64,000 nucleotides of DNA, taken from Candidatus Daviesbacteria bacterium (GTDB taxonomy: Bacteria > Patescibacteriota > Microgenomatia > Daviesbacterales > UBA10151). The stretch lies in the NCBI GenBank assembly GCA_030699125.1, contig JAUYKM010000007.1, positions 5,082 through 69,081 on the forward strand. Direction: 5' to 3'. Shown here piece after piece: positions 6,708-64,000 of this stretch (positions within the stretch are counted from its first letter, which is position 1; every line of letters begins with the position of its first letter). The position numbers and the translations under genes are program-made. The notes under the pieces are model-generated. The model ran no database searches and was not told the origin of the DNA. It saw only the letters and a list, made by a program, of their open reading frames with translations.

Positions 6708-6710
6708 TAG

Positions 6711-11568: not shown

Positions 11569-11688
11569 AGCGAAGTTCCTTGTCTGGTGAGTTCAGACCC
11601 GCACGAAAGGTAGAACGACTTAGCGACTGTCTTGAGGATAGACCCGGCGAAATTGCAATGGCTGTGAAGATGCGGCCTTCCCATACTT

Positions 11689-11726
<38 letters not shown>

Positions 11727-12069: not shown

Positions 12070-12106
<37 letters not shown>

Positions 12107-12143
12107 GCCCTACAGTCCACAAGGACGGCAAGGTTCGGCACCT

Positions 12144-12486: not shown

Positions 12487-12643
12487 CGATGTCGGCTCAT
12501 CGCAGCGCGGGGCTGAAGCAGGTCCCAAGCGTCTGGCTGTTCGCCAGTTAAAGCGGTACGCGAGCTGGGTTCAGAGCGTCGTAAGACAGCTCGGACTCTA
12601 TCCAGTATGGGCGTTTTGATTCTTGAGGGGAGTTGTCTCTAGT

Positions 12644-13021: not shown

Positions 13022-13336
13022 ACGAGAGGACCGAGATGAGGAAACCTCTAGTGTGCCTGTTGTTACTACAGTAGCAGCGCAGGGTAGCTACGTTTCTTTT
13101 TGATAAGTGCTGAAAGCATCTAAGCACGAAGCAGACCCCAAGATGAGGAATCTTTAAGATCCCTAGAAGACTACTAGGTTGATAGGTTGGCGGTGTAAGC
13201 ACTGTAAGGTGTTTAGCCTACCAATACTAATGATCATAGTTGAGATTTTTTGCTCGCCTCGCTTCGCTTGTCGAAGCGGGCTTGAGCCTTTTTAAATACG
13301 TATTCACATTTCAGAGTGTAAATGTTATAATAATGT

Positions 13337-13454
13337 TCTCGGTGGTTTGTGCGAGGCGGTCCGACCTGATCCCATCCCGAACTCAGTCGTCAAACGCTTC
13401 AGCGGGGACGATAATATATCCGCAAGGGTATGTGAAAATACCTCACTGCCGGGA
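13337..13454 (+). rRNA. rrf: 5S rRNA
   Basis: GGTCCGACCTGATCCCATCCCGAACTCAGTCGTCAAACGC...GGGATG core matches the 5S consensus (CCGAACTCAG...GAAAC); terminal helix TCTCGGTGG/CTGCCGGGA. Confidence 0.7.
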
Positions 13455-13512
13455 TAAAAAAGGAAGAAGGTGTTCATGTTTGGTTCAAAAAAATATATCT
13501 AAAAATCCCACT

Positions 13513-14568: not shown

Positions 14569-14569
14569 T

Positions 14570-15874: not shown

Positions 15875-15887
15875 TTTGTGGATAACT

Positions 15888-15907
15888 AATCCGCCAGCTG
15901 GCGGATT
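15888..15907. repeat. family B palindrome AATCCGCCAGCTGGCGGATT (perfect, 20 bp), intergenic between convergent radA and the TPR membrane gene
   Basis: Perfect dyad; likely a bidirectional terminator-like hairpin. Confidence 0.8.
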
Positions 15908-15923
15908 CGGGTTTCCATTCGGG

Positions 15924-22910: not shown

Positions 22911-22934
22911 GTCATTCCTGCGAAGGCAGGAATC
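22911..22934. repeat. family D hairpin GTCATTCCTGC-gaag-GCAGGAATC
   Basis: 8-bp stem ATTCCTGC/GCAGGAAT; intergenic. Confidence 0.7.
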
Positions 22935-22957
22935 TAATTAACAATTTGCGCTCATTT

Positions 22958-43488: not shown

Positions 43489-43500
43489 TAATTTTCCTAT

Positions 43501-43526
43501 TGTCATCCCGCCGAATGGCGGGATCC
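43501..43526. repeat. family D hairpin TGTCATCCCGCC-gaat-GGCGGGATCC in the 5' leader of the O-antigen-ligase-like gene
   Basis: Stem ATCCCGCC/GGCGGGAT. Confidence 0.7.
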
Positions 43527-43556
43527 AATTAACCATGTAAGCTAGGTTTTTAATTA

Positions 43557-43580
43557 GATTCCTGCATTCGCAGGAATGAC
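43557..43580. repeat. family D hairpin GATTCCTGC-attc-GCAGGAATGAC
   Basis: Same stem as 22911. Confidence 0.7.
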
Positions 43581-43715
43581 AGTGACGATAATTTTTTAGA
43601 TTACTACTCTAACATTACTAGGTTATAAATAGTTCTGACAAGTGGGTATAAATATATCAAAATGGTAATTTTTGGATCAGTTTTAGGAAAAAATCTTCCG
43701 TGAAAAAAATAATTT

Positions 43716-46700
43716 TCATGGAGAGGGTGGGCCGATGCCGACAGTAGGATTACCGGATACTATTAAGTAATCAAATTCCACATCTTTGGTTTCTGACTTG
43801 GATAGTTTGACGGTAAAGGATCCGTCTGATTTATTAGTAACAGTGATCAGCTGGCCTAAGGGCACTTTAGGGGTGAGCAGGATAACTGAGGTTTCATCAA
43901 TGTGAGGATTTTTAATGGAGGCTTGGATTTGGCCGGCCGGGATAATACCAACTCCTGCTGTTTGATCCTGTTTAACTTTAATTTGATCTACTATGATGGT
44001 TTTAGCCTTAATGGTACCGTCTTTCTCCAGGGTAATTTTTCCATTAAAGATATCTATGGAAGAAGCCAGTTGAGATTTCTGAAGATAGAGGGTGGATAGA
44101 GCATCAATGGTATTCTCACTGAATGATAATGTTCCATCTATAGTTAGGTTTCCGGCAATTAAAGTATTACCTAAGGTGGTAGTACCAAAGGATTTAAGGG
44201 AGTTTTGGATAATGGCATCATAAGCGGTTAAGGATCCCAGGATCTGGGCAGAGGAAGTTACCTTAAGGTCTGCAGTTAAGGTAGCTGAGTCAGAAGCCAG
44301 TAAGATGTCCGGAGGAGTTAAGTCCAGTGCATCAGTGGATCGGTGTATCAGTGTATCATATAAGGCAAGTTCAGCAGAGTCAGAAGCCTCAGAACTGATT
44401 CCAGCAATCTCTGCAGAAGGAGTAGCTTCAGTATTTTCTTCCTTAATTCTTAATTCTAGATTCTTAATTCTAGATTCTAATGTAGCTATCTTGCCGGAAA
44501 GGTCATAAAACTGGACGGTAGAGGATGGAGAATAGATGGTAGTATTTTGAGGATCGAGGGTAGAAGATGGAGAAGAAGAATCTGTAATCAATCTACTATC
44601 TTCTATCTTCAAATTACTATCTTCTATCCCTCTACTATCTATCGTCAATGATGCTACCTTAAGCTTGGGTATAATTAAATTTCCTTCATTATCCATAGTT
44701 AAGGATGAGAAGAAATTCCCCGGATCTGCAAAGCCACTCTTAACATGGACTAGGATCTGGCCACATTCCACACCCGGTGTGTAAGCGCAATTTTCCACAC
44801 CGGGTGTGGAGCCGGTGTTAGCTGAGAAATCCTCTAATGCTTGGCCTATGACTTGTCCTGGTCTGGTGGCTTTGGCTGCTACTCCCGGAATTTCTGATGA
44901 GGTTAGGTAATCTCCTCTTTTAATATCCCCATTGATAGTAGATACTTTGGTCTTAATCTGACCAAGAAGGCCCACAATGGCTTTATTCACACCGGGGGAG
45001 TCAAGGCCCACCCCCGGTGTGTAGTCTGCGTTTCCTACAAAAGCAGCATCTTTGGAGACTACACCAATCAGGTTTTGGTCATAAGGGATGGATGATTTAG
45101 CCACTCCAGAATGACTCACCCCGGGGGAATCAAGGCCCGCCCCCGGGGTGGCTAGGCTTACTAAATCCCCATCCTCAGTTTCCTCTAAAGCATCAAAATA
45201 TTCTGCAAAATCAGCACCGGTAGATTCATAAGCTACTTTATTATCATTAAGCCTGATTCTGCCTACTCTGACTCCGGCGCTGTCACTGGCCACCCCAGCA
45301 TAAAAATCAATAAAATTAGATGAGACTCCGGAAACAGCAGTACCCAAACCTATCCTTAATCCGGATGTATCCGGAGTATCTACTCCTGACAGGTTAACTA
45401 TGGAGGCAGCAGCAGAGGAGGAAGCTTCCTTCTCTATGGTTAATCCATACAAAGGATTGGTAGTACCAACTCCTACATTACCCAAACTTAATATATTAGA
45501 TGTGGATAATACTGAGCCTCCTACAGACAGACTCACACCGGGGGAGTCAAAGCTCGCACCGTACGGTGTGGCTCCTATTGCCAGGTTACCATCCAGATAT
45601 AGTAAACCTGAATCTAATCTCTCAATGAATTGTTCAGCTTCCCACCAGGTCACATTAACCTGCATTAAAATCTGGCCAGGCGGGGCACCAGTACTACTCA
45701 CACCGGGGGAGTCAGAGCCCACCCCCGGTGTGGCTAAGTAGTCCTCCATAGCTCTGCCAATAATCCTTCCTGTTTTAGTTGCTTTCATGGCTTCACCAGT
45801 AGTAGATGAGGAAGTGAGAGGATCACCTGTATAGATTGGTCCGTTCTCCAGATTAACCTTAACCCATACTTGTCCGAGCATTCCTACATTGGCATAGGTA
45901 GGATCAGAATCCCTGTTATCATCAGGATTATTATATGAAGTACCTCTGGTAGTTATGACTCCAATAATATTCTCATCATAGGATGAATTTGACCTTCGCA
46001 CCACCCCGGGGGAGTCAAAGCCCACCCCCGGTGTGCCCGGAGTTAATATCATGACATCCCCGGGTTCAGATGCATCCTCCTGTTTAATATATTCTGAATA
46101 ATCAGCAGTAGTAGCATCTGAATTGAATCTAAAGGTAGTACCGTTGGACTGGACCCAGATACGGCCTTCAGAAGCAATATTACAGGCATCTACACAGCCT
46201 ATGGCAAGCTCACCGTCAACATCTAACCCGTTCGGGGTGGTATTTACATTATCCCCGATTTCCAGAACCAGATTAGTGCTGTCATATTCAAAAGTGGAAT
46301 AACCGGTAATTGAGGATGTCCCATCCCAGACAGCTATCTGAGGAGCAGTTCCTGTACCGGTAAGCCCGGCGCCTGCATCTGCCTCACAAACTACTCTGCC
46401 TGCAGAATCTGTAGTTAGCTTCCCTCCACCTGATAATCCTGAACAATTATAACTTTGCAGCCGCAGGGCAGACCCTACTGTAAGTGAAACACCTATTCCG
46501 GCATTACCGGCCACATCCACTCCGTAATTGGCAGAAGTTCTGCCTATTCCTACATTGCCAAAGACAGATAACCCCAATCCTGGAATAGATGAGAAGGTAT
46601 TCCCTGTCCAGCCAATCCCTACATTACCTCCCACAAATAATGTAGATCCTGGAGTAGATGTACCTATACCTAGGTTTATTCCAACATTACCCCCGTTGAA

Positions 46701-49700
46701 GATTGCAGCTGGAGCTGTATATCCTGCACCAACACCAATCATATTAACTACTAACCCTGGAGTACCTGAACTTACCCCAATCCCCACCATCCCTTGTGAA
46801 TATAATCCTCCTGGACCTATTCCCAACCCTCCACCTACTGTGAGCTGATTACTAATAATAGCTGATTCCCTGACTTGTAAAGCCCCGGCCTCCAATGATC
46901 CAATCTGTGCAGATGTAACATCTATTCCTCCTATATCATAAATCTGAAACTCACAACCTACATTAGTCTGAGCATCACAGGTGTTCGCATTGCTGACTTT
47001 TGTTGCATAGAGGTATCTTCCTGACACAAAAATTGTCTTATCAACATTACCTGCAGGAGCATTCCCTCCATTATCAGCCCCTCCTACAAATATAGGATTG
47101 GATGGATTAGACACATCATATACTTGTATCTCACAACCAATACTTGCAGAGAAACTACATAACCCAGGATTAGCAGCATTACTTAGATACAGATATTTTC
47201 CTGAAACAAAAACAGATCGAATAGCATTAACTACAGAAGCAGTGCTTACTTGTGTTGGAGAATAGGGATTAGATATTCTATAAACATAATATGTTCCACC
47301 ACTATCCCCTAAATAAGCATAACTTCCTGATACAAAAACTGATTCTATGCGATTAGTTCCCCCAGGAGCAACGCTACTTACTCGTATTGGTTTTATAGGA
47401 TTAGAAACATCATAAATATCTAAATAACTAGAGGCTGACCCCCCTCCCACATAAACATATCTTCCAGAAACAAATATAGAAATTGGGAAAGCACTAAGAG
47501 AAATCTGACTTACTAGTAAAGGTGAGGTCGGATCGGAAACGTCAGCAATTTCTAAAATATTAGAGCTATTAGCAATATAAGCATATCTACCTGAAACAAA
47601 TAAAGCAGCAGTACCTCCCGGAAAAGTTAGATTTAATCCTCCCGTGTATAAAGGTTTACTAGGGTTAGATATATCCCAAATTTGAAACTCACAACCATCT
47701 CTGGTAGTAGAAGAACAAGCACCATTGTTTACCCCCCTACCAAGATATAAATAATTTCCTGAAACATAAATAGAAGCAGCGCTACCAGTAAAGCCAGGGG
47801 TACCTGAAATCCCCGCTATAGCAACAGGAGAATTTGGATTAGATATATCATATATTAGAAGGAGACAATTAGTAAGAGTGCTGAGTGTACATGCATTACC
47901 AGTGCTATTATTTTTTCCTACATAAGCATACTTGCCTGAGATAAAGATAGCAGTTCCGTTATTAGTTGATGTAAAACTTGCCCCACCAATATACATAGGA
48001 TTTTGGGGGGTCTGTAACAAACTACCTCCTAATATATCAAGAGCACTTCTGGGGGCAGTAGTTCCAACACCTACATTACCTTGGGAGGTAACTGTAAATG
48101 GTAGTGGATTAGTTAAATTAGTTCCCACATAAGTAGGATTAATTTGGAAAAGCTGGGATGGTGAAGTCCAACCTATACCTATATTACCATTTAGGAATAC
48201 TGCTCCCGGGATATCATTTGAACCAAAGCCTGCTCCCCATAAGTGGAATGGTGCTATGGGACTGCTGGTCCCCAAACCTACATTCCCTTCCACAATCAAC
48301 CCATTGGCAGGAGCATTATAATAGGCAAAGGAGGAACCTATGCCCATAGATCCAAAGACCCCTAATCTGTTGGCTGAGGCAGAGGAACCTATTCCCAGTC
48401 TCATATTGGCATTATCCCAGAAGAATGGATCAGCTCCCTGAACCTGAGTCCCACCGCCATTAAAGAAGGTAACCTGGCCTGCTTCCGGGGTACCAAATGC
48501 CTCAATTCCTGAACCTCCGGCATCAGCATCACAAACTACCCTGCCTGAAGAATCTGTGGTTAACATACCATCACCGCAATTATAGATTTGCAATTGCAAA
48601 GCTGATCCTACTGTTAATGATTGTCCTATACCTACATTACCTACTACATGCAGTCCATATGTTGGGGTGGTGGTGCCAATGCCTACATTGCCAAAGACAG
48701 ATAATCCCAAGGAAGGCATGGCAGCAAAGGTATATCCGGTCCAGCCTATCCCCACATTTCCTCCCACAAAAAGGGTAGATCCCGGAGTAGAAGCCCCAAT
48801 TCCAAGATTTATCCCTACATTCCCTCCATTAAATATAGCAGCCGGAGCTGTATATCCGGTCCCCACTCCTAACATATTTACTACTAATCCTGGAGTCCCG
48901 GATGAAACCCCAATCCCCACCATTCCCTGGCTTAATAATCCTCCTGGTCCTATATTAATACCACTGTTAACTGTTAACTGATTACTGATAACTGCACTTT
49001 CTCTGACCTGTAACCCACCTGCCTCTAAACTACCTATTAATGCACTAGTTACATCTATACCCCCAATGTCATAAATCTGAAACTCACAATCTGTTTTTTT
49101 TGATGAACAGTTAGGACTACTAGAAGCTACACCATCTCCTACATATGCATACCTGCCTGAGACAAAAACTGTATTAGCAGCACTACTGCCAGCATCTGTA
49201 ACATTAGCCCCACCTACATATAATGGATTGTAAGGGTTTGAAACATCATAAACTTGTAATTCACAACCAGTAGAAGTAAAGAAGTTACAAGTTCCAGTAT
49301 TAACAGTTTTTCCTAAATACAAATATCTTCCTGAAACAAAGACAGAGTTAATACCATCTCCAGCAGAAGCTGTAGCTACTTGAGATGGAGAATAAGGATT
49401 GGATGTATCAAATATTCTCAATGTTCCACCACTATCTCCTATATATGCATATCTGCCTGAAACATAAACAGAGTTAGCAGTACCGCTAGTAGAAGTACTA
49501 CTTATCTGTATTGGATTGGTAGGATTAGTTACATCAAATATCTTTAAAGTAGTACCATCTCCTGCATAAGTGTATCTTCCTAAGGTAAATACAGAAGCTA
49601 TAGCATTCCCAGTATTTATTCCTCCTGTATATACAGGAGAAGTGGGGTTAGATACATCATAAATCTGTAATTCACAACCAGTATTTGTAGTAGAGGAACA

Positions 49701-52700
49701 GGTACCACCATTGGCAGCCTTGCCTAAATAGGCATACCTGCCTGATACAAAGACACTCTGGCCAGCATCCCCTCCATCATCTGCCCCACCTATATATAAT
49801 GGATTATTAGGATTGGATACATCATAAACTTGTAATTCACAACCAGTATTGGTGGTGGAGGAACAAGTACCAGCATTACCAGTTTTTCCTAAATATGCAA
49901 ATTTACCAGAAACATAGATACTCTCGACTAGATTAGCTATTTCAAAGCCATTTATAAAAGTTGGATTATTTGGATTAGAGACATCAAAAATCATAAACTC
50001 ACACCCTGTGTTGCTCCCTGCTGTACAACTACCAGTTTCAAATTCTGTTCCAACATAAGCATATTTACCTGAAACAAATATACTTGTTACTACTTGAGAA
50101 TCAGTTGCTTGTAGGTCTGATCCTCCTATAAAGGTAGGATTTTGGGGGGTTTGGAGGAGGGAACCACCTAAAATGTCCAGGGCACTTCTAGGAGCAGTTG
50201 TACCTACACCTACATTTCCCTGTGATGTAACTGTAAAAGGTAGGGGATTAGTTAATTGGGTTCCTACATATGTTGGATTAATCTGGAAGAGTTGGGAAGG
50301 TGAAGTCCAGCCTATACCCACATTGCCATTAAGAAATACTGCTCCCGGAGTTTCATTAGAAGCAAATCCTGCTCCCCAAAGATGGAAAGGAGCAATAGGA
50401 CTGCTGGTCCCCAAGCCTACATTACCCTCTATAACTAGAGAGTTGGAAGCTGGAGTCTGGAAACTGGAAAAAGAGGTACCAATACCCATAGATCCAAAGA
50501 CCCCTAATCTGTTAGCTGAGGCAGAAGAACCTACCCCTAACCTCATTAATTCATTATTCCAGAAGAGAGTATTAGCTCCGGTGACAGATGATCCCCCGTC
50601 AAAGAAGGTAACCTGGCCGGAGGCTGCGGAACCGGAAAGTGTATCTGCGCCGGAATCATCCTGACAAACTACTCTGCCGGAGGAGTCTGTAGTTAACTTA
50701 CCTCCACCACCTAAGCCATTACAAGCATAACCGGAAAGCTGCAAAGCAGACCCTACTGTGAGTGATTGTCCTATTCCTACGTTTCCTACTACCTGCAGTC
50801 CATATGTTGGGGTGGTGGTGCCAATGCCTACATTGCCAAATACAGATAACCCTAATCCTGGCATACTAGCAAAGGTAAATCCGGTCCAGCCAATCCCTAC
50901 ATTACCTCCAACAAATAATGTGGAACCTGGAGTAGAGGATCCTATCCCCAGATTAATCCCTACATTACCTCCATTAAATATAGCTGAGGGAGCAGTATAC
51001 CCTGTACCTACCCCTAACATATTAACCACTAACCCTGGAGTACCTGAACTTACCCCTATCCCTACCATTCCTTGTGATAATAATCCTCCTGGACCTAATC
51101 CTATTCCACCACCTACATAAAGCTGGTTATTTATGAATGCATTTTCCCTAACCTGTAACCCTCCAGCCTCAAGTGATCCAATCTGAGCAGATGTTACATC
51201 TATCCCAGAAATATCAAATACATTTATTCCACAGAAATTAGTATCCGAAGTACAAGTCTTAACGTTATTAAACTGCAGGGTATATAAATACCTACCAGAT
51301 ACAACTATTGCTGTACTACCACCCAAATTAGCAACTCCAGTATCTTTACCTCCTAAGAAAATAGGATTAGCAGGATTTGAGATATCCCAAAGTTGTATTG
51401 TACAACCAGAATTAGTTATGGAATTACACGTAGGATTAGGTAAACCAAGCTTATTTCCTCCCACAAATAAGTAGTTACCAGATACTGCAAAAGAGAATGC
51501 AAAAGCGCTACTAGTTCCAAAAGCATTAGTACTCATAAGAGTGGGACTGGCTGGATTTGAGATATCAAATATTTTGAATTGGCCAGTATTACCAGCATTA
51601 GTATAAGCATATCTACCGGAAACATAAATATCACCACTCTGAGATATTGCACTCATACTAGCTCCTCCTAAATATAAAGGACTGGCTGGATTTGAGATAT
51701 CATAAATCATGAATTCACAGCTAGTATTATCGGTAGAATTACAAGTACCAGCACCATTAGCCTTTCCTACATAAGCATATTTGCCGGAAACGAATAAACC
51801 AACAGCATTAACATTTAGGCTTACTGTTGATACACGAGTAGGATTAATTGGATTGGAGATATCATAAATTTGAAAAGCATGTGCAGTAACAGTAGTTATA
51901 TAAAGATATCTGCCAGATATTTGAAGACCTCTAATACTGCCAGATACAGATACCTGTCCAACAAGAGCAGGGGCTGTTGGATTAGATATATCATAAACTC
52001 GTAAATTAAGTCCTGTTCCAACATAAGCATAATTCCCCACAACATATACTCCACCAACAAGGCTAGAGCCAATGGTTGCACTGCCTATCTGAGTTGGCGT
52101 AGAAGGATTACTAATATCTAAAATTATCAAACCAGTACTATTTAGAATATACAAATATCTACCTGAGACAAAAACTTCATTTTGACCGCTATTATTATTT
52201 TGTCCAGCGGTAATATTATTAGAAGTACCATTAGTTCCCCCAACCCAGGTAAGATTTTGGGGGGTTTGGAGTAAACTACCACCTAAGATATCCAGAGCAG
52301 ACCTAGGAGCAGTAGTTCCTACTCCTACATTACCTTGGGAAGTAACTGTAAAAGGTAGCGGATTAGTTAACTGAGTCCCTACATAAGTTGGGTTTATCTG
52401 GAATAATTGGGATGGAGAAGTCCAGCCAATTCCTATATTACCATTTAAGAATATTCCTGAGACAGTGCCATTACCCCATACATGTAAGGGAGCAATGGGG
52501 GAAGAAGTACCCAGACCTACATTTCCTTCCACAATTAATCCATTAGCAGGAGCATTATAATAGGCAAAAGATGAACCAATCCCTAATGATCCAAAGACCC
52601 CAAGGGTGTTGGCTGAGGCAGAGGAACCTATACCTAATCTCATTAATTCATTATTCCAATAAAATGGAGTTGCACCCTGAACCTGAGTCCCGCCTCCGTC

Positions 52701-55130: not shown

Positions 55131-58100
55131 GGTCCGCTGGCTTGAATAGTAGATTTATCTATTCCTACGATTAAGTAATCAAAAGTAATGTCAAATGTTT
55201 CCGGACGGGCCAGTTGAACCGTAAACTTGCCTTCTTTTTTGTCTATCACGGCTAAGCTCTGAGTTAAGGCAATATCTGCTGTTACAGGAGTAATCAGAAT
55301 GATGGAATCCTCTGCAGCGTATGAGTTTTCAATCAGGGTATTAATCTGGCCTTTAAGGATAGTACCTTCTCCCCGGCTGGTGTCAGGATTAACCTTAATC
55401 TGATCTACTATGATGGTTTTAGCCTTAATGGTACCGTCTTTCTCCAGGGTAATTTTTCCATTAAAGATATCTACTGAGCTAGAAAGTAGAGATTTTTGAA
55501 GATAGAGGGTGGATAGAGCATCAATGGTATTCTCACTGAATGATAAAGTTCCATCTATGGTTAGGTTTCCGGCAATCAGAGTATCTCCTAAGGTAGTTTG
55601 TCCAAATGATTTAAGGGAATTCTGGATAATGGCATCATAAGCTGTTAAGGATCCCAGGATCTGGGCAGAGGAAGTTACTGTAAGGTCTGCAGTAAGAGTG
55701 GCAGAACCGGAAGCAAGTAGGATATCAGGAGGGCTAAGATCTAGCTGATCAAGCTGGGCCAGGATGGAAGAGGAAGATGATTCATTCACTTGAGCCAGGG
55801 CTGCAGAGGAGGTGGCAGTATTGTCATCCTCTTGTAGAAGGGGATCCAATAAACTGTCAGAGTTAGAATTGTCACTATTTGTTAATTGGATTCCTGCATC
55901 CGCAGGAATGACATTTTGGTCCAGGGTGTTTTCCAGCTGAGCTATTCTTTCCTCAAGTGAGGCAATCTTGCCGGAAAGATCATAATATTGGACGGTAGAG
56001 GATGGAGAATAGATGGTAGTATTTTGAGGATCGAGGGTAGAAGATGGGGAAGAAGAATCTGTAATCAATCTGCTATCTTCTATCTTCAAATTACTATCTT
56101 CTATCCCTCTACTATCTATCGTCAATGATGCTACCTTAAGCTTGGGTATTATCAGATTCCCTTCATTATCCATAGTTAAGGATGAGAAGAAATTCCCCGG
56201 ATCTGCAAAGCCACTCTTAACATGGACAGAGATGAGGCCCTGTTTCACCCCGGGGGAGTCTCCCTCGACTTCGCTCGGGACAAGCGGGCCCACCCCCGGG
56301 GTGTTAGCTGAGAAATCCTCCAATGCCTGTCCTATTACCTGTCCTGGTCTGGTGGCTTTGGCTGCTACTCCCGGAATCTCTGATGAGGTTAGGTAATCTC
56401 CTCTTTTAATATCCCCATTGATAGTAGATACTTTAGTCTTAATCTGACCCAGTAAGCCTACAATGGCTTTATTCACACCGGGGGAGTCTCCCTCGACTTC
56501 GCTCGGGACAAGCGGGCCCACCCCCGGTGTGTAGTCTGCGTTTCCTACAAAGGCAGCATCATGGGAAACAACTCCAATCAGGTTTTGGTCATAAGGGATG
56601 GATGATTTAGCCACTCCAGAATGACTCATGGTTAGGCTTACTAAATCCCCATCCTCAGTTTCCTCTAAAGCATCAAAATACTCTGCAAAGTCAGCACCCA
56701 CTGATTCATATGCTACTTTGTTATCATTAAGTCTGATCCTGCCAACTCTCACCCCGGGGGAGTCAGGGCCCGCCCCCGGGGTGGCTACTGCTGCATAGAA
56801 GTCTATGAAGTTGGAGGAAGTGCCGGAGATAGGTGTACCTAAGCCTAATTTAAGGGCAGATGTATCAGGGTTATCAGCTTGAGATAGATTAATAATGGAG
56901 GCTGAGGCTGAGGATGAGGCATCTTTAATTATATCCAGTCCATAAAGGGGATTGGTGGTGCCAATACCAACATTACCTAAGGATAAGATATTGGATGTGG
57001 CAAGGATTGAGCCTTCAACTGCCAGGCTCACCTCGGTGCCGGGAGGACTGCCTCCTATTGCTAGGTTACCATCCAGATATAGTAAGCCTGAATCTAATCT
57101 CTCAATAAATTGTTCAGCTTCCCACCAGGTGACATTAACCTGTATTAAAATCTGGCCAGGCGGGGCACCAGTACTGCTCACCTCGAAGGAGTCAGGGTCC
57201 ACTTCCGAGGTGTAGTTTTCCATGGCCCTGCCTATAATTCTTCCTGTTTTAGTTGCTTTCATGGCTTCACCTTGAGTAGATGAAGAAGTTAGAGGATCAC
57301 CTGTATAAATTGGTCCGTTCTCCAGATTAACCTTAACCCATACTTGGCCGAGCATTCCTACATTGGCATAGGTAGGATCAGATTGTCTATTATCATCCGG
57401 ATTATTATATGAAGTCCCTCTGGTGGTAATTACCCCGATAATATTCTCATCATAGGATGAATTTGACCTTCGCACCACCCCGGGGGAGTCAGTGCCCACC
57501 CCCGGTGTGCCCGGAGTTAATATCATCACATCCCCGGGTTCAGATGCATCTTCCTGTTTAATATATTCTGAATAGTCAGCAGTAGTAGCATCTGAATTGA
57601 ATCTAAAGGTGGTACCGTTAGATCTGGTCCAGATACGGCCGGCAGAGGCAACTGTTCCTGTTGATCCGATGGTAAACTCACCATCTACATCTAAACTATC
57701 TGGAGTTGTGCCTGTATCTCCAATTTCCAGAACCAGATTAGTACTGTCATATTGAAAAGTGGAATAACCGGTAATTGAGGATGCCCCATCCCAGACAGCT
57801 ACCTGAGTAGCAGTTCCTGTACCGGTAATGCCGCCAGCACCTCCGGCATCTGCCTGACAAACTACTCTGCCTGAGGAATCTGTGGTTAATTTACCGCCGT
57901 TGGTTAGGACCCCGCAGTTATATGATGATAACTGCAAAGCTGATCCTACTGTTAAGGATTGTCCAATACCTACATTACCTACTACATGTAATCCATAAGC
58001 TGGGGAAGTGGTTCCAATTCCTACATTACCAAAAACAGACAGTCCCAGTCCCGGCATGGAGGCAAAAGTGTTGGCTGTCCAGCCAATGCCAACGTTGCCT

Positions 58101-61100
58101 CCCACAAAAAGGGTTGATCCAGGAGTAGAAGCCCCTATCCCTAAATTAATCCCCACATTCCCACCATTAAATATAGCTGCTGGAGCTGTATATCCAGTCC
58201 CTACTCCTAACATCTCTACTCTTAATCCTACAGTTCCACTAGATACCCCTATCCCCACCATGCCTTGTGAATATAATCCTCCTGGCCCAATACCTAACCC
58301 TCCACCTACAGTTAACTGATTATTAATAAATGCATTCTCCCTAACTTGTAATCCACCAGCCTCAAGTGATCCAATTAATGCAGATGTAACATCAATCCCC
58401 CCTATATCATAAATCTGAAACTCACACCCTTCACTGTTAATTGCATTACAAGTATTAGAATTAGCAGCTTTACCTGAATAGAGATATCTTCCTGAAACAA
58501 AGATAGCTTTATCAGCCCCAACATTATTCCCCCCATTGTCAGCCCCTCCTACATACAGGGGATTATTTGGATTTGAGATATCATAAACCTGAATCTCACA
58601 ACCAGTAGAGGTGAAAAAATTACATACTCCAGCATTGGCAACTTTCCCCAGATATAAATATTTTCCTGATACAAATACTGATTGAATAGCATCTCCTGTA
58701 GTGATTGTGGATGATTGGGTAGGAGAGTATGGATTGGATACATCAATTATTCTTAATGTCCCACCACTATCTCCTACATAAGCATATCTGCCTGAGACAA
58801 AAATGGAGTTAGTATCAGATGTATAACCAATAATAGTTTTGCCTATTAAGATGGGATTTGTAGGATTAGATATATCATAGATACCCATTTCACCGTCATC
58901 ACAAAGTTCGGGTAAGCCACTAAAACACCTTGCTATATAAGCATATCTACCTGAGACAAAAATGGAGTTAACAGTTAATGCATTCATACTACTACCGCCT
59001 ATATATAATGGGCGTGAAGGATTAGAGATATCGTATATTCTTAATACTCCTCCGTTCTCTACAGTATATGCATACCTGCCTGAAACAAAGACACTAGTGC
59101 TGTTTCCTCCATTATCAGCTCCTCCCACAAAGATGGGATTAGCTGGATTAGATACATCATATATCTGTAACTCACAACCTGTTGAGGTGGTAGAAGAACA
59201 AGTACCAGCATTAGAATTTGTCCCTACATATGCAAATTTACCTGAGATAAATACAGATTGAGCAGTAGAAGTAGTAGAAATACTACTTATTTGTACAGGT
59301 GAGTTAGGATTAGTTACATCAAAGATTTTAAGAGTAGCTCCATCACCTGCATATACATATTTTCCAGAGGCAAACACAGAATTCATGCCATTTCCAGTAT
59401 TTAATCCTCCCACAAAGGTAGGATTCTGGGGGGTTTGGAGGAGGGAACCACCTAGGATATCTAAAGCTGATCTGGGGGCTGTGGTTCCTACTCCAACATT
59501 ACCTTGGGATGTAACAGTAAATGGTAGGGGATTAGTTAACTGTGTCCCTACATATGTAGGATTAATTTGGAATAATTGGGAAGGGGAAGTCCAGCCTATG
59601 CCAATATTTCCATTTTGGAATATTGCCGAACCGGACAAATGAAAGGAAGCAATAGGTGAGCTGGTCCCCAAGCCTACATTACCTTCCACAATTAATCCAT
59701 TGGTGGGAGCATTATAATAGGCAAAGGAGGAACCTATGCCCATAGATCCAAAGACCCCTAATCTGTTAGCTGAGGCTGAAGAACCTACCCCTAACCTCAT
59801 TAATGCATTATTCCAAAATAGAGTATTAGCTCCCGTTACAGAGGATGCCCCGTCAAAGAAGGTAACCTGTCCTGAAGATCCTGAACCTGTTACCCCGCCG
59901 CCTCCGGCATCAGCTGCACAAACCACTCTGCCTGAAGAATCGGTAGTTAATTTCCCACCGCCACCCAACCCTGAACAATTATAGTTTTGCAGCTGCAAAG
60001 CAGATCCTACAGTTAAGCTCTGTCCAATTCCCACATTACCCACTACATCTAATGCATAATTAGCTGTGGTAGTTCCAATCCCCACATTCCCAAAGACAGA
60101 TAATCCTAAGCCCGGCATGGATGCAAAGGTAAATCCAGTCCAACCTATTCCTACATTCCCTCCTACTACGAGAGTTGCTCCCGGAGTAGAAGCACCTATA
60201 CCTAAATTAATCCCTACATTTCCTCCATTAAATATAGCTGCAGGAGCTGTATATCCAGTACCTACTCCTAACATCTCCACATATAATCCAGTGGTTCCAG
60301 AAGATACTCCAATCCCCACCATTCCCTGAGATAATAATCCACCAGGTCCTACTCCCAACCCTCCACCCACTGTTAGTTGATTAGATATTATTGCTGATTC
60401 TCTAACTTGCAGACTACCTGACTCAAGAGAACCTATTAAAGCACTTGTTACATCAATCCCACCTATATCATATATCTGAAACTCACATCCCACATTAGTC
60501 CCTGCATTACAAGTCCCGGCATTGGCAGCTTTTACCATATAAGCATACCTGCCGGAGACAAAGACCTCATTACCATCATCCCCCAAATCAGCCCCGCCCA
60601 CTAAAGCAGGTGAGGAGGGATTGGATATATCATAAATCCTGAATTCGTTACCTGTTACAGTACCAGTTACCACATAAGCATACCTGCCTGAGACAAAGAC
60701 ACCCCAACCATTAGTCCCCAACTCAACCCCGCCCACTAAAGTAGGTGAGGAGGGATTGGATATATCATAAATCCTGAATTCGTTACCTGCGTCATTATCA
60801 AGTACCACATAAGCATATCTTCCTGAGACAAAGACATCACGACTAAAATTTCCTAACTCAACCCCACCCACCTCAATAGGTGAGGAGGGATTGGATATAT
60901 CATAAATCCTGAATTCGTTACCTGTTACAGTACCAGTTACCACATAAGCATACCTGCCTGAGACAAAGACACCCCAACCACCATTCCCCAAATCAGCCCC
61001 GCCCACCTCAATAGGTGAGGAGGGATTGGATATATCATAAATCCTGAATTCGTTACCTGTTACACTACCATGTACCACATAAGCATACCTGCCTGAGACA

Positions 61101-64000
61101 AAGACACCAAGACCACTATTCCCCAAATCAGCCCCACCCACCTCAATAGGTGAGGAGGGATTGGATATATCATAAATCCTGAATTCGTTACCTGCTGTAT
61201 CATTATTTACCATATATGCATACCTGCCTGAGACAAAGACATCCCAACTACTAGCCCCCAAATCAGCTCCTCTCACAAAAGTGGGACTGGTTGGATTAGA
61301 CACATCATAGATTTTAAACTCACAGCCGGTATCATCAGTGGATGAACAAGTACCAGTATCTGCACTCTTGACCACATAAGCATACCTGCCTGAGATAAAG
61401 ACATTATTGTTAGCATCAGCCCCGCTATCAGAAGCCCCTCCCACAAAGGTAGGATTTTGGGGGGTTTGGAGTAGGGAGCCACCAAGGATATCTAAAGCAC
61501 TTCTGGGGGCTGTAGTTCCTACTCCTACATTTCCAGTACTGGTTACTACAAATGGTAGGGGATTAGTTAATTGGGTTCCAACATAGGTGGGGTTTATCTG
61601 GAATAGTTGGGATGGGGAAGTCCAACCTATTCCTATATTTCCATTTAAGAAAATGGCAGAGGTGGTGCCTGAGCCCCAAAGATGGAATGGTGCTATGGGA
61701 CTGCTGGTCCCCAAGCCTACATTACCTTCCACAATTAATCCATTAGCAGGAGCATTATAATAGGCAAAGGATGATCCTATACCCATAGATCCAAATACCC
61801 CAAGGGTGTTGGCTGAGGCAGAAGATCCAATTCCTAACCTCATTAATTCATTATTCCAGTAGAATGAGTTAGCTCCTGTAACCTGGGTACCGCCACCGTC
61901 CCAAAATGTGACCTGTCCTGAAGATCCTGAACCTGTTACTCCTGCTCCTCCGGCATCAGCCTGACAGACTATTCTGCCTGCGCTGTCAGCTGTCAGCTTA
62001 CCCCCACCGGTTAATCCTGAACAATCATAACTTTGCAGCTGCAAAGCTGATCCTACTGTTAATGATTGTCCTATACCTACATTACCTACTACATGCAGTC
62101 CATATGTTGGGGTGGTGGTGCCAATACCCACATTCCCAAAGACAGATAACCCTAGTCCAGGCATACTAGCAAAAGTATATCCTGTCCAACCAATTCCTAC
62201 ATTACCTCCTACAAACAAAGTAGATCCAGGAGTAGAAGCACCTATCCCTAAATTAATACCTACATTCCCCCCATTAAATATAGCAGCAGGAGCAGTATAA
62301 CCTGTACCTACTCCTAACATTTCTACATATAAACCTACAGTTCCTGAAGATACTCCTATCCCTACCATTCCTTGAGACATTAATCCTCCCGGCCCTATTC
62401 CCAACCCTCCACCTACTGTGAGCTGGTTTGATATTATTGCTGACTCTCTTACTTGTAACCCCCCAGCTTCTAAACTCCCAATAATAGCAGAAGTAACATC
62501 TATCCCACCAATATCATAAATCTGAAACTCACAACCTACATTAATTCTTGATGAACATGTATCACTGTTGGAAACTTTTCCTAAATATATATATCTTCCA
62601 GAGACAAATATCTCATCAGTATTACCCCCTGCATCATTACCACCATTATCAGCCCCACCAGCATATAATGGATTATTAGGATTGGAAACATCATATACTT
62701 GTAATTCACATCCATCATTGCCTGCAGCACTGTTTAAGAAATTACAAGTTCCATTATCAGAATTCCTCCCTAAATATGTATATCTACCAGAGACAAAAAC
62801 AGAATTAATAGCACCATTACCAGCAGAAATAGTAGAAGCTTGTGCTGGAGAATATGGGTTAGAGATATCATAAATTCTTAATGTATCACCAGTATCTCCT
62901 AAATATGTATATCTACCAGAGACAAAAACAGAATTAATAGCAGAACCAACAGCAGTACTGCTCAATTGTAAAGGTGAAGTTGGATTAGAGACATCATATA
63001 TTCTAAAGTTGCCATTACCATCTCCTATATAAGCAAACTTACCTGCAATAAAGACAGAGGTAATACTGCCTCCTGAAGTGTCAGCTCCTCCTACAAATCT
63101 GGTACTAGTTGGGTTTGAAATATCATATATTTGTAACTCACAACCAGTATTGGTAGTAGAACTACAAGTACCAGATACACCAGTGACTCCAGCATAAGCA
63201 TATTTTCCCGAGACAAAAACGGAAATAACAGAATTATTAGACGTATCTGCCCCACCTACAAATAATGGAGAAGCTGGGTTTGAAATATCATATATTTGTA
63301 ACTCACAACCAGTATTAGTGGTAGATGAACAAACTCCAGATCCACCATTAACTCCCACATAAGCATACTTTCCTGATACAAAGACAGTATCGAAACCGCT
63401 GCCAGCAGAGAGAGTACCTATTTGGCTAGGTGAGGAAGGATTGGTAACATCATATATTCTAAATGTTCCACCATTATCTCCAGTATAGGCATACTTTCCA
63501 AATATAAAGACTGCTCTGGTACCATTATCCCCATCGCTAATTCCTCCTACAAAAATAGGATTTTGGGGGGTCTGTAACAAACTACCTCCTAATATATCAA
63601 GAGCACTTCTAGGAGCAGTAGTTCCAACTCCTACATTTCCTGTACTGGTTACTACAAATGGTAAAGGATTAGTTAACTGAGTTCCTACATATGTCGGGTT
63701 AATCTGGAATAGCTGAGATGGTGAAGTCCAGCCTATACCTATATTGCCATTTAGAAATACTGCACCCGGAGTTTCATTAGAAGCAAAGCCTGCTCCCCAA
63801 AGATGGAATGGGGCAATGGGGGAGGAAGTCCCCAACCCCACATTTCCCTCCACAATCAGTCCATTCTCAGGAGCATTATAATAGGCAAAAGAAGCACCAA
63901 TACCAACAGCTCCAAAGACCCCTAATCTGTTAGCCGAGGCAGAAGAACCTATACCCAACCTCATTAATTCATTGTTCCAGAAGAGAGTATTAGCTCCGGT
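55127..64000 (-). CDS. giant modular surface protein paralog (more than 2,945 aa; 5' end beyond window), same module architecture and C-terminal domains
   Basis: ORF open to the window edge; begins mid-repeat (…MRLGIGSSASANRLGVFG is internal); 60-90% identity to gene 1 with tracts of at least 53 bp identical. Confidence 0.85.
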   Translation of the reverse strand, partial: TGANTLFWNNELMRLGIGSSASANRLGVFGAVGIGASFAYYNAPENGLIVEGNVGLGTSSPIAPFHLWGAGFASNETPGAVFLNGNIGIGWTSPSQLFQINPTYVGTQLTNPLPFVVTSTGNVGVGTTAPRSALDILGGSLLQTPQNPIFVGGISDGDNGTRAVFIFGKYAYTGDNGGTFRIYDVTNPSSPSQIGTLSAGSGFDTVFVSGKYAYVGVNGGSGVCSSTTNTGCELQIYDISNPASPLFVGGADTSNNSVISVFVSGKYAYAGVTGVSGTCSSTTNTGCELQIYDISNPTSTRFVGGADTSGGSITSVFIAGKFAYIGDGNGNFRIYDVSNPTSPLQLSSTAVGSAINSVFVSGRYTYLGDTGDTLRIYDISNPYSPAQASTISAGNGAINSVFVSGRYTYLGRNSDNGTCNFLNSAAGNDGCELQVYDVSNPNNPLYAGGADNGGNDAGGNTDEIFVSGRYIYLGKVSNSDTCSSRINVGCEFQIYDIGGIDVTSAIIGSLEAGGLQVRESAIISNQLTVGGGLGIGPGGLMSQGMVGIGVSSGTVGLYVEMLGVGTGYTAPAAIFNGGNVGINLGIGASTPGSTLFVGGNVGIGWTGYTFASMPGLGLSVFGNVGIGTTTPTYGLHVVGNVGIGQSLTVGSALQLQSYDCSGLTGGGKLTADSAGRIVCQADAGGAGVTGSGSSGQVTFWDGGGTQVTGANSFYWNNELMRLGIGSSASANTLGVFGSMGIGSSFAYYNAPANGLIVEGNVGLGTSSPIAPFHLWGSGTTSAIFLNGNIGIGWTSPSQLFQINPTYVGTQLTNPLPFVVTSTGNVGVGTTAPRSALDILGGSLLQTPQNPTFVGGASDSGADANNNVFISGRYAYVVKSADTGTCSSTDDTGCEFKIYDVSNPTSPTFVRGADLGASSWDVFVSGRYAYMVNNDTAGNEFRIYDISNPSSPIEVGGADLGNSGLGVFVSGRYAYVVHGSVTGNEFRIYDISNPSSPIEVGGADLGNGGWGVFVSGRYAYVVTGTVTGNEFRIYDISNPSSPIEVGGVELGNFSRDVFVSGRYAYVVLDNDAGNEFRIYDISNPSSPTLVGGVELGTNGWGVFVSGRYAYVVTGTVTGNEFRIYDISNPSSPALVGGADLGDDGNEVFVSGRYAYMVKAANAGTCNAGTNVGCEFQIYDIGGIDVTSALIGSLESGSLQVRESAIISNQLTVGGGLGVGPGGLLSQGMVGIGVSSGTTGLYVEMLGVGTGYTAPAAIFNGGNVGINLGIGASTPGATLVVGGNVGIGWTGFTFASMPGLGLSVFGNVGIGTTTANYALDVVGNVGIGQSLTVGSALQLQNYNCSGLGGGGKLTTDSSGRVVCAADAGGGGVTGSGSSGQVTFFDGASSVTGANTLFWNNALMRLGVGSSASANRLGVFGSMGIGSSFAYYNAPTNGLIVEGNVGLGTSSPIASFHLSGSAIFQNGNIGIGWTSPSQLFQINPTYVGTQLTNPLPFTVTSQGNVGVGTTAPRSALDILGGSLLQTPQNPTFVGGLNTGNGMNSVFASGKYVYAGDGATLKIFDVTNPNSPVQISSISTTSTAQSVFISGKFAYVGTNSNAGTCSSTTSTGCELQIYDVSNPANPIFVGGADNGGNSTSVFVSGRYAYTVENGGVLRIYDISNPSRPLYIGGSSMNALTVNSIFVSGRYAYIARCFSGLPELCDDGEMGIYDISNPTNPILIGKTIIGYTSDTNSIFVSGRYAYVGDSGGTLRIIDVSNPYSPTQSSTITTGDAIQSVFVSGKYLYLGKVANAGVCNFFTSTGCEIQVYDISNPNNPLYVGGADNGGNNVGADKAIFVSGRYLYSGKAANSNTCNAINSEGCEFQIYDIGGIDVTSALIGSLEAGGLQVRENAFINNQLTVGGGLGIGPGGLYSQGMVGIGVSSGTVGLRVEMLGVGTGYTAPAAIFNGGNVGINLGIGASTPGSTLFVGGNVGIGWTANTFASMPGLGLSVFGNVGIGTTSPAYGLHVVGNVGIGQSLTVGSALQLSSYNCGVLTNGGKLTTDSSGRVVCQADAGGAGGITGTGTATQVAVWDGASSITGYSTFQYDSTNLVLEIGDTGTTPDSLDVDGEFTIGSTGTVASAGRIWTRSNGTTFRFNSDATTADYSEYIKQEDASEPGDVMILTPGTPGVGTDSPGVVRRSNSSYDENIIGVITTRGTSYNNPDDNRQSDPTYANVGMLGQVWVKVNLENGPIYTGDPLTSSSTQGEAMKATKTGRIIGRAMENYTSEVDPDSFEVSSTGAPPGQILIQVNVTWWEAEQFIERLDSGLLYLDGNLAIGGSPPGTEVSLAVEGSILATSNILSLGNVGIGTTNPLYGLDIIKDASSSASASIINLSQADNPDTSALKLGLGTPISGTSSNFIDFYAAVATPGAGPDSPGVRVGRIRLNDNKVAYESVGADFAEYFDALEETEDGDLVSLTMSHSGVAKSSIPYDQNLIGVVSHDAAFVGNADYTPGVGPLVPSEVEGDSPGVNKAIVGLLGQIKTKVSTINGDIKRGDYLTSSEIPGVAAKATRPGQVIGQALEDFSANTPGVGPLVPSEVEGDSPGVKQGLISVHVKSGFADPGNFFSSLTMDNEGNLIIPKLKVASLTIDSRGIEDSNLKIEDSRLITDSSSPSSTLDPQNTTIYSPSSTVQYYDLSGKIASLEERIAQLENTLDQNVIPADAGIQLTNSDNSNSDSLLDPLLQEDDNTATSSAALAQVNESSSSSILAQLDQLDLSPPDILLASGSATLTADLTVTSSAQILGSLTAYDAIIQNSLKSFGQTTLGDTLIAGNLTIDGTLSFSENTIDALSTLYLQKSLLSSSVDIFNGKITLEKDGTIKAKTIIVDQIKVNPDTSRGEGTILKGQINTLIENSYAAEDSIILITPVTADIALTQSLAVIDKKEGKFTVQLARPETFDITFDYLIVGIDKSTIQASGP
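55887..55911. repeat. family D hairpin GGATTCCTGC-atcc-GCAGGAATGAC in-frame inside giant gene 2 (encodes NVIPADAGI)
   Basis: Identical stem to the intergenic copies but inside the CDS; the paralog lacks it at the equivalent position. Confidence 0.75.
56246..56303. repeat. family A palindromic element, long form with 24-bp nested insert in the loop (encodes TPGVGPLVPSEVEGDSPGV)
   Basis: CACCCCGGGGGAGTC-tccctcgacttcgctcgggacaagcggg-CCCACCCCCGGGGTG. Confidence 0.85.
56474..56531. repeat. family A palindromic element, long form (second copy, identical loop insert)
   Basis: CACACCGGGGGAGTCTCCCTCGACTTCGCTCGGGACAAGCGGGCCCACCCCCGGTGTG. Confidence 0.85.
56750..56783. repeat. family A palindromic element (encodes TPGAGPDSPGV)
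   Basis: CACCCCGGGGGAGTCAGGGCCCGCCCCCGGGGTG. Confidence 0.85.
57179..57212. repeat. family A palindromic element, decayed (CACCTCGAAGGAGTCAGGGTCCACTTCCGAGGTG; encodes TSEVDPDSFEV)
   Basis: Same length and loop as family A with compensatory arm changes (CCTCGAAGG / CTTCCGAGG still pair). Confidence 0.6.
57476..57509. repeat. family A palindromic element (encodes TPGVGTDSPGV)
   Basis: CACCCCGGGGGAGTCAGTGCCCACCCCCGGTGTG. Confidence 0.85.

Follow-up and report, generated by a model that had tools for sequence, protein, structure and literature searches.

What do two genes of about 11.4 kb each, arranged in tandem and together occupying about 23 kb, encode in an ultrasmall groundwater bacterium belonging to the candidate phyla radiation (CPR; Patescibacteria)? 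The question is raised by a 64,000-nucleotide stretch of Candidatus Daviesbacteria DNA (hereafter referred to as the window), which carries on its minus strand an open reading frame (ORF) of 3,804 amino acids (gene 1, 43716..55130; MDP3973350.1) and a second (gene 2) listed as 55127..63964+, the 3' 8.9 kb of which lie within the window, in a frame that is open to base 64000 and specifies 2,957 amino acids. The full-length product of gene 2 (P0062; MDP3973351.1) has 3,819 residues, the last 2,957 of which are identical to the window translation. Both proteins are annotated as "hypothetical protein" and come from the same 72,967-bp contig of a metagenome-assembled genome (MAG). The two genes are paralogues located on the Daviesbacteria chromosome, and not in a phage. 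On balance, they seem to encode giant phage-tail-fibre-like proteins, each consisting of a mini-intein lacking its nucleophile, four modules and a C-terminus resembling that of phi29 gp12.

Architecture of the two gene products

The two reading frames overlap, as proposed in a first-pass annotation of the window: in the sequence ...ggaccATGAaaaacc, the ATG of gene 1 (55130-55128) and the TGA of gene 2 (55129-55127) share the tetranucleotide ATGA, and the pair is probably co-transcribed. A fusion of the two products by read-through or frameshifting was considered and rejected, as gene 2 has the natural C-terminus of its family (...GP, as in P0001) and the frame of gene 1 is closed upstream of its own ATG.

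A 20-residue anchor (GIGWTSPSQLFQINPTYVGT) recurs at amino acids 191, 900, 1605 and 2318 of gene 1 and at amino acids 88, 790 and 1467 of the window translation of gene 2, with a period of 677-713 amino acids (2.03-2.14 kb). Each protein has four modules of about 700 amino acids, three of which are visible in the window for gene 2. According to the alignment of the seven visible modules, each consists of a nearly invariant head of 60 amino acids, a seven-bladed LVIVD propeller formed by a variable region of about 360 amino acids with YAYV...IYDISNP units, and a Gly-rich stalk of about 290 amino acids with GNVGIG-type repeats, the propeller being joined to the stalk by the sequence DI(S/G)GIDVTSAxIGSLEAGxLQVRE. 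The module composition, the module number (four in gene 1 and at least three in gene 2) and the spacing given in the first-pass annotation were all upheld; the positions listed there as module starts correspond to the LQTPQNP end of the head. On the minus strand of gene 1, module 1 lies at 52434..54560 (amino acids 191-899, with the head at 191-250, the propeller at ~250-610 and the stalk at ~608-899), module 2 at 50319..52433, module 3 at 48180..50318 and module 4, the stalk of which continues into the C-terminal region, at 46281..48179. The second, third and fourth modules of gene 2, delimited in the same way by the anchor and the alignment, lie at 61634..63739, 59603..61633 and 57746..59602, respectively, on the same strand, and the propeller of the third is made of recently amplified blades.

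The LVIVD assignment was corroborated by the corresponding profile (PF08309), which matched the two proteins with scores of 331.9 and 362.1 bits (cut-off 20.2; E 1.5e-101 and 5.7e-111). Module 1 was modelled with AlphaFold2 from an alignment of 47 sequences: its residues ~60-420 fold into seven four-stranded blades (pLDDT ~90-96), forming a closed propeller. Its matches in a Foldseek comparison with the PDB, with E values as low as 2e-13, were all generic propellers with seven or eight blades, and a PDB sequence search with one module returned nothing meaningful. Paired Cys residues are present in the propeller loops, a feature that fits an extracytoplasmic protein.

The C-terminal regions of genes 1 and 2 are 74% identical at the protein level, so the conserved region noted in the first-pass annotation does exist, and the domains within it are indeed paired, at a size of about 190 amino acids each rather than about 100. 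These two paralogous domains (hereafter referred to as C1 and C2) are 37% identical (E 1e-32) and open with the motif (T/G)AD(Y/F)(S/A)EY. In gene 1, C1 (45591..46163, minus strand; ADYSEYI at amino acid 3009) and C2 (44691..45263, minus strand; ADFAEYF at amino acid 3306) precede a tail (43719..44690, minus strand) composed of a linker, a predicted beta-rich region and a terminal domain ending in ...FDYLIV. The corresponding region of gene 2 (55130..57745, minus strand) contains C1 (ADYSEYI at window amino acid 2141), C2 (ADFAEYF at 2436) and the tail. The top PDB matches of the C2 model in Foldseek were the pre-mature form of phi29 gp12 (3suc) and its C-terminal fragment (3gqh), with a probability of 1.00 and E values of 7e-5 and 1.7e-4, respectively; the TM score for 3gqh, normalised to the target, was 0.56, and C2 was 20-21% identical to the gp12 structures. 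The modelled structure therefore points to C1 and C2 as putative chaperone domains of the gp12 type, with C2 a predicted relative, at fold level and below the profile threshold, of the Peptidase_G2 family. Among 58 homologues of the C-terminal region, mostly from CPR bacteria, many match Peptidase_G2 (PF11962), and 32 relatives share, without exception, the Asp and Glu of the AD-x-AE motif. The Peptidase_S74 chaperone that had been anticipated was not found: PF13884 matched neither the whole proteins nor sub-fragments at E values of up to 1, and the proteins are, as judged by these profile searches, not members of the S74 family, the chaperone type being that of phi29 gp12 and Peptidase_G2. 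The last 320 amino acids of gene 1 had no family or PDB sequence match, and a PDB sequence search with the C-terminal 894 amino acids yielded nothing meaningful.

The C-terminal domain of phi29 gp12 is an auto-chaperone: it promotes the folding of the trimer, from which it is subsequently removed by cleavage (PMC3357383). C2 has the same fold as this domain of the pre-neck appendage and the same C-terminal location after an elongated repetitive body, and an invariant Asp...Glu motif lies at the start of the domain. The proteins studied here differ from gp12 in the tandem duplication of the chaperone domain (C1 and C2), the presence of a 320-amino-acid tail after it, a body made of four propeller-plus-stalk modules rather than a pectin-lyase-type beta-helix, a size four to five times larger and a cellular gene; for them, cleavage is a proposal only.

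The earlier architecture had left out an N-terminal domain. Residues 1-182 of gene 1 (54585..55130, minus strand) constitute a DnaB-type mini-intein (Hint domain): the Intein_splicing profile (PF14890) matched amino acids 42-182 with 53.2 bits, against a cut-off of 35.8, and the solved DnaB, DnaX and NrdJ mini-inteins matched the domain up to its terminal HN (E 2e-9 to 7e-6). Block B reads TTKEHPY, block F/G reads YDLQIEGTHNFLGNDIVAHN and the +1 residue is Thr183; these motifs are identical in gene 2, and the C-junction, NDIVAHN|T (the bar marks the junction), is the same in both paralogues and in relatives. By contrast with relatives, in which the N-junction is GQ|C, position 1 is Asp10 in gene 1 and Glu in gene 2, with about nine residues upstream. 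Canonical splicing is impossible, because the Cys1 nucleophile is replaced and only about nine residues precede it, and the class 3 route is also closed, because block F contains no Cys. Judged by these motifs, neither Hint is functional as a class 1 intein; cyclisation of the Asn, resulting in C-terminal cleavage, remains chemically possible. Most likely, the Hint would act as a self-cleaving N-terminal propeptide or would stay in place as an inert cap; processing would be visible as a semi-tryptic N-terminus, TYLTGGNVGIGW....

Compared with class 1 mini-inteins (DnaB-type; PDB 4o1r and 1mi8), the domain has the same Hint fold and shares with them block B (TxxH), block F and a Thr after the terminal HN, but it carries Asp or Glu, and not Cys, Ser or Thr, at position 1. 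It resembles bacterial intein-like (BIL) and pretoxin-HINT (PT-HINT) domains in residing in a variable, surface-type protein, and possibly in being able only to cleave. Its location at the extreme N-terminus distinguishes it from PT-HINT domains, which are found before C-terminal toxins, and from true inteins, which lie inside conserved enzymes.

Proposed fibre assembly, unexplained export and module divergence

When one stalk and head were used to query 1.84 billion representative proteins, 7,725 Gly-rich fibre relatives were recovered (E ≤0.001), many of them giant, including proteins of 2,000-6,000 amino acids. Several relatives (P0116, P0129, P0159, P0003 and P0108) have multiple LVIVD propellers and share both the junction and the C-terminus, and P0100 is a further multi-propeller relative. 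Typical relatives start with an excisionase/MerR-like helix-turn-helix (HTH) motif (..LGVSIDTLRRW..) followed by a hydrophobic segment, which, on sequence grounds, we read as a cellular membrane anchor, as for surface proteins. Other relatives end in S74-type chaperones (PF13884), and one LVIVD relative (P0219) has been named "tail fiber domain-containing protein" by NCBI. Proteins of this last kind, from bacteria and archaea, also combine LVIVD propellers, GxVGIGTxxP repeats and a C-terminal chaperone; genes 1 and 2 differ from them in the type of chaperone (G2/gp12 rather than S74), in having four complete modules per protein, in their arrangement as two tandem genes and in the beheaded intein. 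A likeness is also evident to the giant multidomain surface proteins of CPR bacteria and of other episymbionts or predators: the gene 1 and gene 2 products are likewise very large and repetitive, have domains of types usual in interactions at cell surfaces, and are encoded in a CPR genome of the ~1-Mb class. Their architecture is distinct and includes no recognisable export signal. The fibres are thus of a kind common but uncharacterised in CPR bacteria, no experimental characterisation of the relatives having been found in the literature searched. No description of the architecture was found in the literature on giant bacterial genes, CPR, inteins and LVIVD, our coverage of which was incomplete, and a preprint on "giant genes" (10.1101/2023.11.21.568195) makes no mention of LVIVD, inteins or tail fibres.

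In a mechanism proposed after the example of phage tail spikes and fibres, trimerisation of the fibre, and its folding from the C-terminus, would be nucleated by the C-terminal chaperone domains, which might then be released through self-cleavage at the conserved (A/G)|D-x-x-E. The result would be a long trimer, with a shaft made up of the Gly-rich stalks and heads and with four tiers of propellers as variable ligand-binding "beads" for attachment to host cells or other surfaces. The proteins are therefore, on this comparison, probably attachment fibres. The current view is that CPR bacteria live in attachment to other cells, through contact molecules that are mostly unknown, and the gene pair provides a concrete candidate for host recognition, with a conserved scaffold, four fast-evolving propellers and a considerable share of a very small genome.

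Several results weigh against this interpretation. The stalk, modelled as a monomer, had a pLDDT below 50 and yielded no confident AlphaFold model, so the trimeric fibre rests on analogy. The stalk also had no match to Pfam or PHROG tail-fibre profiles, which lend no support to the "phage tail-fibre type" assigned to these repeats in the first-pass annotation; the link to phage tail fibres would be an indirect one, through the LVIVD-module relatives carrying PF13884 and the NCBI name of one of them. The sole Peptidase_G2 match was to C2, at 22.6 bits (E 8e-5; cut-off 25), and the model of C1, unlike that of C2 (pLDDT 87-96), was not confident. Finally, no signal peptide or transmembrane segment was found in either full-length protein, including the N-terminus of gene 2 outside the window, the maximum Kyte-Doolittle mean over 19 residues being 1.64-1.67. 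Export is therefore unexplained, as related fibres do have an anchor, and although the surface attachment role proposed in the first-pass annotation is plausible, the surface location remains an inference. The beheaded intein raises the same question, that of how such a fibre is matured and exported without a signal peptide.

The missing export signal led us to consider two other readings. According to the first, the genes would be silent or semi-silent donor cassettes, that is, anchor-less copies of the post-intein part of a membrane-anchored fibre gene, to which they would pass propeller and stalk segments by short-tract gene conversion, generating surface variation in an expressed protein. 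Both genes lack the HTH and hydrophobic N-terminus of their relatives and begin exactly at the beheaded intein, as if excised from a longer gene, and the conserved segments flanking the variable propellers could serve as recombination handles. Nevertheless, neither 11.4-kb frame is interrupted, each has an ATG of its own, and their overlap of 4 nt is of the type usual in genes that are co-translated. Moreover, translation of the 64-kb window in all six frames revealed neither an anchored partner gene (HTH anchor ..SIDTLRRW) nor an N-terminal intein piece (GQ|CVxGDT).

The divergence between modules bears directly on this reading. The median dN/dS between modules (Nei-Gojobori method) was 0.06 for the head (dS 1.04), 0.115 for the stalk (dS 1.11) and 0.39 for the propeller (dS 1.26); the heads of different modules are 97-98% identical in protein sequence, versus 78-83% in DNA sequence, and the modules differ from each other at 20-45% of nucleotides. 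On these estimates, the modules are old duplicates, in which the scaffold parts have been kept constant through purifying selection and the propellers diverge several times faster, a pattern that fits a conserved scaffold carrying diversifying binding domains. As dS is similarly high (~1.0-1.26) in head, stalk and propeller, the likeness of the modules is due to purifying selection and not to homogenisation. The homogenisation of modules by gene conversion, put forward in the first-pass annotation, was rejected for the same reason, whereas a few short conversion tracts (56-86 bp) and mosaic C-termini were retained from that proposal.

These tracts were detected with a GENECONV-style test, in which runs of identical polymorphic sites were compared with those in 500 column shuffles: the longest runs comprised 44, 33 and 25 polymorphic sites, versus a shuffle maximum of 23. 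The best candidate for a short gene-conversion tract is an 86-bp identity (44-site run; global p = 0/500) between the stalk of gene 1 module 3 (48595..48680, minus strand) and a gene 2 stalk (62040-62125). The 53-bp identity previously noticed between 47998-48050 and 63558-63610 is exact and extends to 56 bp (47995..48050 and 63555-63610, minus strand; 25-site run, 0/500), and a further significant shared tract of 59 bp lies within gene 1. The C-terminal 900 amino acids of the two genes are mosaic, with DNA blocks that are 90-99% identical and others that are 45-70% identical; third codon positions are 80-100% identical in the high-identity blocks. This mosaic structure fits recombination between the paralogues. 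The statistically significant tracts and mosaic C-termini are compatible with donor cassettes, but the tracts are few and very short, and purifying selection acts on each module in its own right (dN/dS 0.06-0.39 at dS ~1). We consider it unlikely that the genes serve as donor cassettes, and retain attachment fibres as the more probable reading.

One propeller of gene 2 contains a tandem array (60532..61267, minus strand) of 5.5 copies of a 135-bp unit with 86% matches, encoding near-identical blades, and this array represents a recent intragenic amplification of blades. It is also the only spot at which copy number might be wrong in a short-read assembly. Repeats are a known hazard in short-read MAGs, and the tandem arrangement, or the modular repetition itself, might on this account be an artefact of the assembly of a single repetitive gene. 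This is extremely improbable: the modules differ by at least 20%, and up to 45%, in DNA sequence and the longest exact repeats are 86 bp between modules and 103 bp within one propeller, making collapse or duplication of one gene very unlikely. Moreover, the genes differ in their indels, their hairpin content (see below) and a linker stretch of about 40 amino acids, and their products were deposited as separate intact ORFs on the same contig. The risk is confined to the copy number of the 135-bp blade array.

Inteins and hairpin elements within the fibre genes

A scan of one genome per species, with an alignment of the Hint domain as the query, identified 74 loci (L001-L074), almost all from CPR bacteria and DPANN archaea, with 96 intein C-junctions. 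The +1 residue is Thr in 94 of the 96, the GxVGIG fibre motif follows within 30 residues in 60, and a recognisable G(Q/H)|C N-junction is present for 50 of this set. A single giant fibre ORF may contain up to five inteins. Members of this family (e.g. L033, at 2018-18940, L011, L001, L021 and L032) have an N-junction of the form ...LHVxGQ|CVxGDT followed by an Arg-rich loop, and a C-terminal part of the form ...THNFxxNDIVAHN|TYIxGNVGIG. As the C-junctions adjoin GxVGIG and the N-junctions are G(Q/H)|C, the family resides in the stalk motif of giant fibre proteins. The Hint copies that open genes 1 and 2 are, by their motifs, derivatives of this family without the upstream part. For an intein family, a presumably exported structural protein is an uncommon location, the usual hosts being replication enzymes.

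In four intein copies, the reading frame is broken in the Arg-rich loop, just after CVxGDT (L007 at ~11440-11580, L008 at ~1709 and 8256, and L009 at ~1165). The break in L007 coincides with about four tandem copies of the heptanucleotide ACTTGGA. Such breaks could correspond to an assembly error, phase variation or the natural splitting of inteins. They are relevant to the second reading suggested by the lack of an export signal, according to which the Hint of genes 1 and 2 would be the larger, C-terminal part of an intein split in an atypical manner, trans-spliced to a membrane-anchored protein ending in ...GQ|CVxGDT, such that one anchor could display alternative fibres. The related family has precisely this N-junction; the frames are broken exactly in the Arg-rich loop, in three Daviesbacteria/Microgenomates loci, such that the upstream ORF ends in a short N-terminal piece of the intein and the downstream ORF starts like genes 1 and 2; and genes 1 and 2 have neither Cys1 nor an anchor. 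However, residues 9-31 of gene 1 (DLDVGMLLSIDGKLEKVANIKKI) resemble, in an unscored alignment by eye, the first strands of the DnaB mini-intein, with Asp in place of Cys1, and if this likeness holds, the fold looks complete in cis. Furthermore, no ORF carrying an N-terminal intein piece that could act as a partner was found in the window, errors of assembly or of sequencing in purine-rich tracts may account for the broken frames of other MAGs, and a +1 Thr is a poorer nucleophile for efficient trans-splicing. A split intein at this locus is thus distinctly improbable, and self-cleavage, or retention as a cap, remains the fate we favour for the Hint.

The first-pass annotation had also left out a second type of insertion. 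The two C-termini contain nine in-frame copies of a hairpin element with an 11-bp stem and a 12-nt loop (CAC......GG-TGGGCYYTGACT-CC......GTG), encoding TPGVGxDSPGV; two of these copies have 24 extra loop bases, and no copy was found elsewhere in the 64 kb. The element forms a 34-nt hairpin, corresponds to a 30-bp insertion and is GC-rich in a genome with a GC content of 40%. Gene 1 has four copies (46002-46035, 45699-45732, 45117-45150 and 44988-45021, minus strand), together with a half copy near 45540. Gene 2 has three 34-nt copies (57476-57509, 57179-57212 and 56750-56783, minus strand) and two long 58-nt copies (56474-56531 and 56246-56303, minus strand). The C-terminal indels between the two genes coincide with this element: at one site, filled in one gene and empty in the other, an exact 30-bp insertion distinguishes gene 1 from gene 2 within otherwise near-identical flanks, and the gene 2 copy at 57179-57212 differs from its gene 1 counterpart by compensatory changes in the stem.

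Outside the window, the hairpin occurs at L007, L008, L018, L027, L052 and L075-L154. In further Daviesbacteria loci, as well as in those of Shapirobacteria and in related loci, it is present in different genes and may have either orientation. A scan of JGI metagenomes, in which the loop and the three outer base pairs were fixed and complementarity was not required, yielded at least 120 copies. All six free stem positions were Watson-Crick paired in 103 of the 120 matches listed, and five of the six in a further sixteen; the same 120 matches include 21 different stem arms, and 73 of them are located within ORFs of 200 amino acids or more, at a depth of 30 codons or more. Four registers are used (TS.VG.DS.EV, TS.ES.PT.EV, HL.GV.AHL.G. 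and SP.RSQSPP.RW), and many of the contig names among the matches listed refer to groundwater (Hainich 0.1-um filtrates). In 19 copies preselected for complementarity, double changes were observed in 6 of the 11 stem pairs, with a covariation score of 0.38, versus 0.155 for shuffled pairs (0/500 shuffles). No Rfam family for the hairpin was found when the window was scanned at the gathering threshold and 43450-46200 by E value, the only matches being chance miRNA-like ones on a long imperfect inverted repeat. No description of the element was found in the literature searched, the coverage of which was incomplete.

Rickettsia palindromic elements (RPEs) are mobile palindromes of about 100-150 bp, found in-frame in protein-coding genes. 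The hairpin resembles RPEs in being a multi-copy palindrome inside ORFs that preserves the frame and differs in presence between paralogues, in its use of several reading frames and both orientations, and in its apparent placement in surface loops; it differs from them in being much shorter and GC-rich, with a conserved 12-nt loop and freely covarying stems, and in its occurrence in the CPR lineage. Its sequence features suggest a miniature, RPE-like mobile element of CPR genomes. If mobile, it would constitute a new example of a selfish element surviving in reading frames and generating loop variation in streamlined genomes. Different hairpin-derived inserts occupy a single loop of the gp12-like domain, that between ALE.F and GKI.VF, in three proteins (TPGVENCAYTPGVECG at amino acids 3436-3462 of gene 1, TPGVGPLVPSEVEGDSPGV at window amino acids 2562-2596 of gene 2 and TSEESKPTSEV in P0108), and the corresponding loop of P0003 (NTSEES) may carry a partial one; this loop appears to be an insertion hot-spot.

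It may be suggested, tentatively and with limited confidence, that giant fibre genes of CPR bacteria are hot-spots for two selfish elements located within coding sequence: the intein family homing to the stalk and the hairpin element with the loop GGTGGGCYYTGACTCC. If this is true, the inteins would home to ...LHVxGQ|TYIxGNVGIG, with up to five per protein, and a beheaded copy would have been kept as a self-cleaving or trans-ligating N-terminal module. The hairpin would insert in-frame, in either orientation, into many genes of groundwater Patescibacteria, adding 10-residue loops to surface proteins.

Two other repeats were observed. An imperfect inverted repeat of about 125 nt (44520-44645 and 55997-56122), with one purine-rich and one pyrimidine-rich arm (RNA fold z = -2.5), is in-frame in both genes (TIDSRGIEDSNLKIEDSRLITDSSSPSSTLDPQNTTIYSPSS), and encodes the same protein sequence in both. 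The homologue P0001 lacks this repeat, which may represent a further inserted element. A second family of palindromes, GTCATTCCTGCG.A.GCAGGAATC / GGATCCCGCC....GGCGGGATGAC, translated as VIPADAGIQ / WIPAYAGMT, is present at 22916-22940, 43506-43580 and 55886-55912, and in the N-terminal extension of P0062. One copy is intergenic and one is in-frame in the C-terminal linker of gene 2. The presence of a palindrome pair ahead of gene 2 suggests that the true start of this gene is the Met of MTSIRAPELDVG.

Chromosomal setting of the gene pair

The remaining gene content of the window is cellular, as is usual for a CPR chromosome, and includes genes for a RadA-like protein, Rho, a type IV pilin, an M23 peptidase, glycosyltransferases and a Wzy_C/TPR protein, together with a 23S rRNA gene with a LAGLIDADG intron, a 5S rRNA gene and four tRNA genes. 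This setting is relevant to a last alternative, in which genes 1 and 2 would be tail-fibre genes of an integrated prophage or of a phage-tail-like particle. The co-occurrence of GNVGIGTTxP repeats with phage-type C-terminal chaperone domains and the phi29 gp12 chaperone fold of C2 are both compatible with such an origin. However, the 43 kb on one side of the pair, with its rRNA, tRNA, Rho, pilin, glycosyltransferase and Wzy_C genes, contains no phage structural, replication or integration genes. None of the annotated phage families in PHROGs gave a match to any of the parts compared (stalk, C1, C2, tail and Hint), and a scan of IMG/VR with the last 494 amino acids of gene 1 found no relatives. 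In addition, the HTH and hydrophobic segment of the relatives are read as a cellular membrane anchor, and a length of 3,800 amino acids far exceeds that of usual tail fibres. A prophage origin is therefore very improbable indeed, and we continue to regard the proteins as cellular fibres.

The gene directly downstream of gene 1, on the same strand, encodes a membrane protein with Wzy_C (O-antigen-ligase-like) and TPR domains (41150-43528, minus strand). Its annotated TTG start is doubtful, because a pair of the palindromes of the second family sits at this position. Glycosyltransferase genes are located at 29.3-31.0 kb of the window; that the Ser/Thr-rich fibres might be glycosylated is pure speculation. 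The 23S rRNA gene (8889-13249) is 4,361 nt long, versus 2,925 nt for the model, and contains the LAGLIDADG homing-endonuclease ORF at 11020-11496. The genes for tRNA-Ile and tRNA-Ala are usually located in the rRNA spacer; here, tRNA-Ile(GAT) (141-215) and tRNA-Ala(TGC) (8701-8774) are separated by 8.5 kb, with protein-coding ORFs between them.

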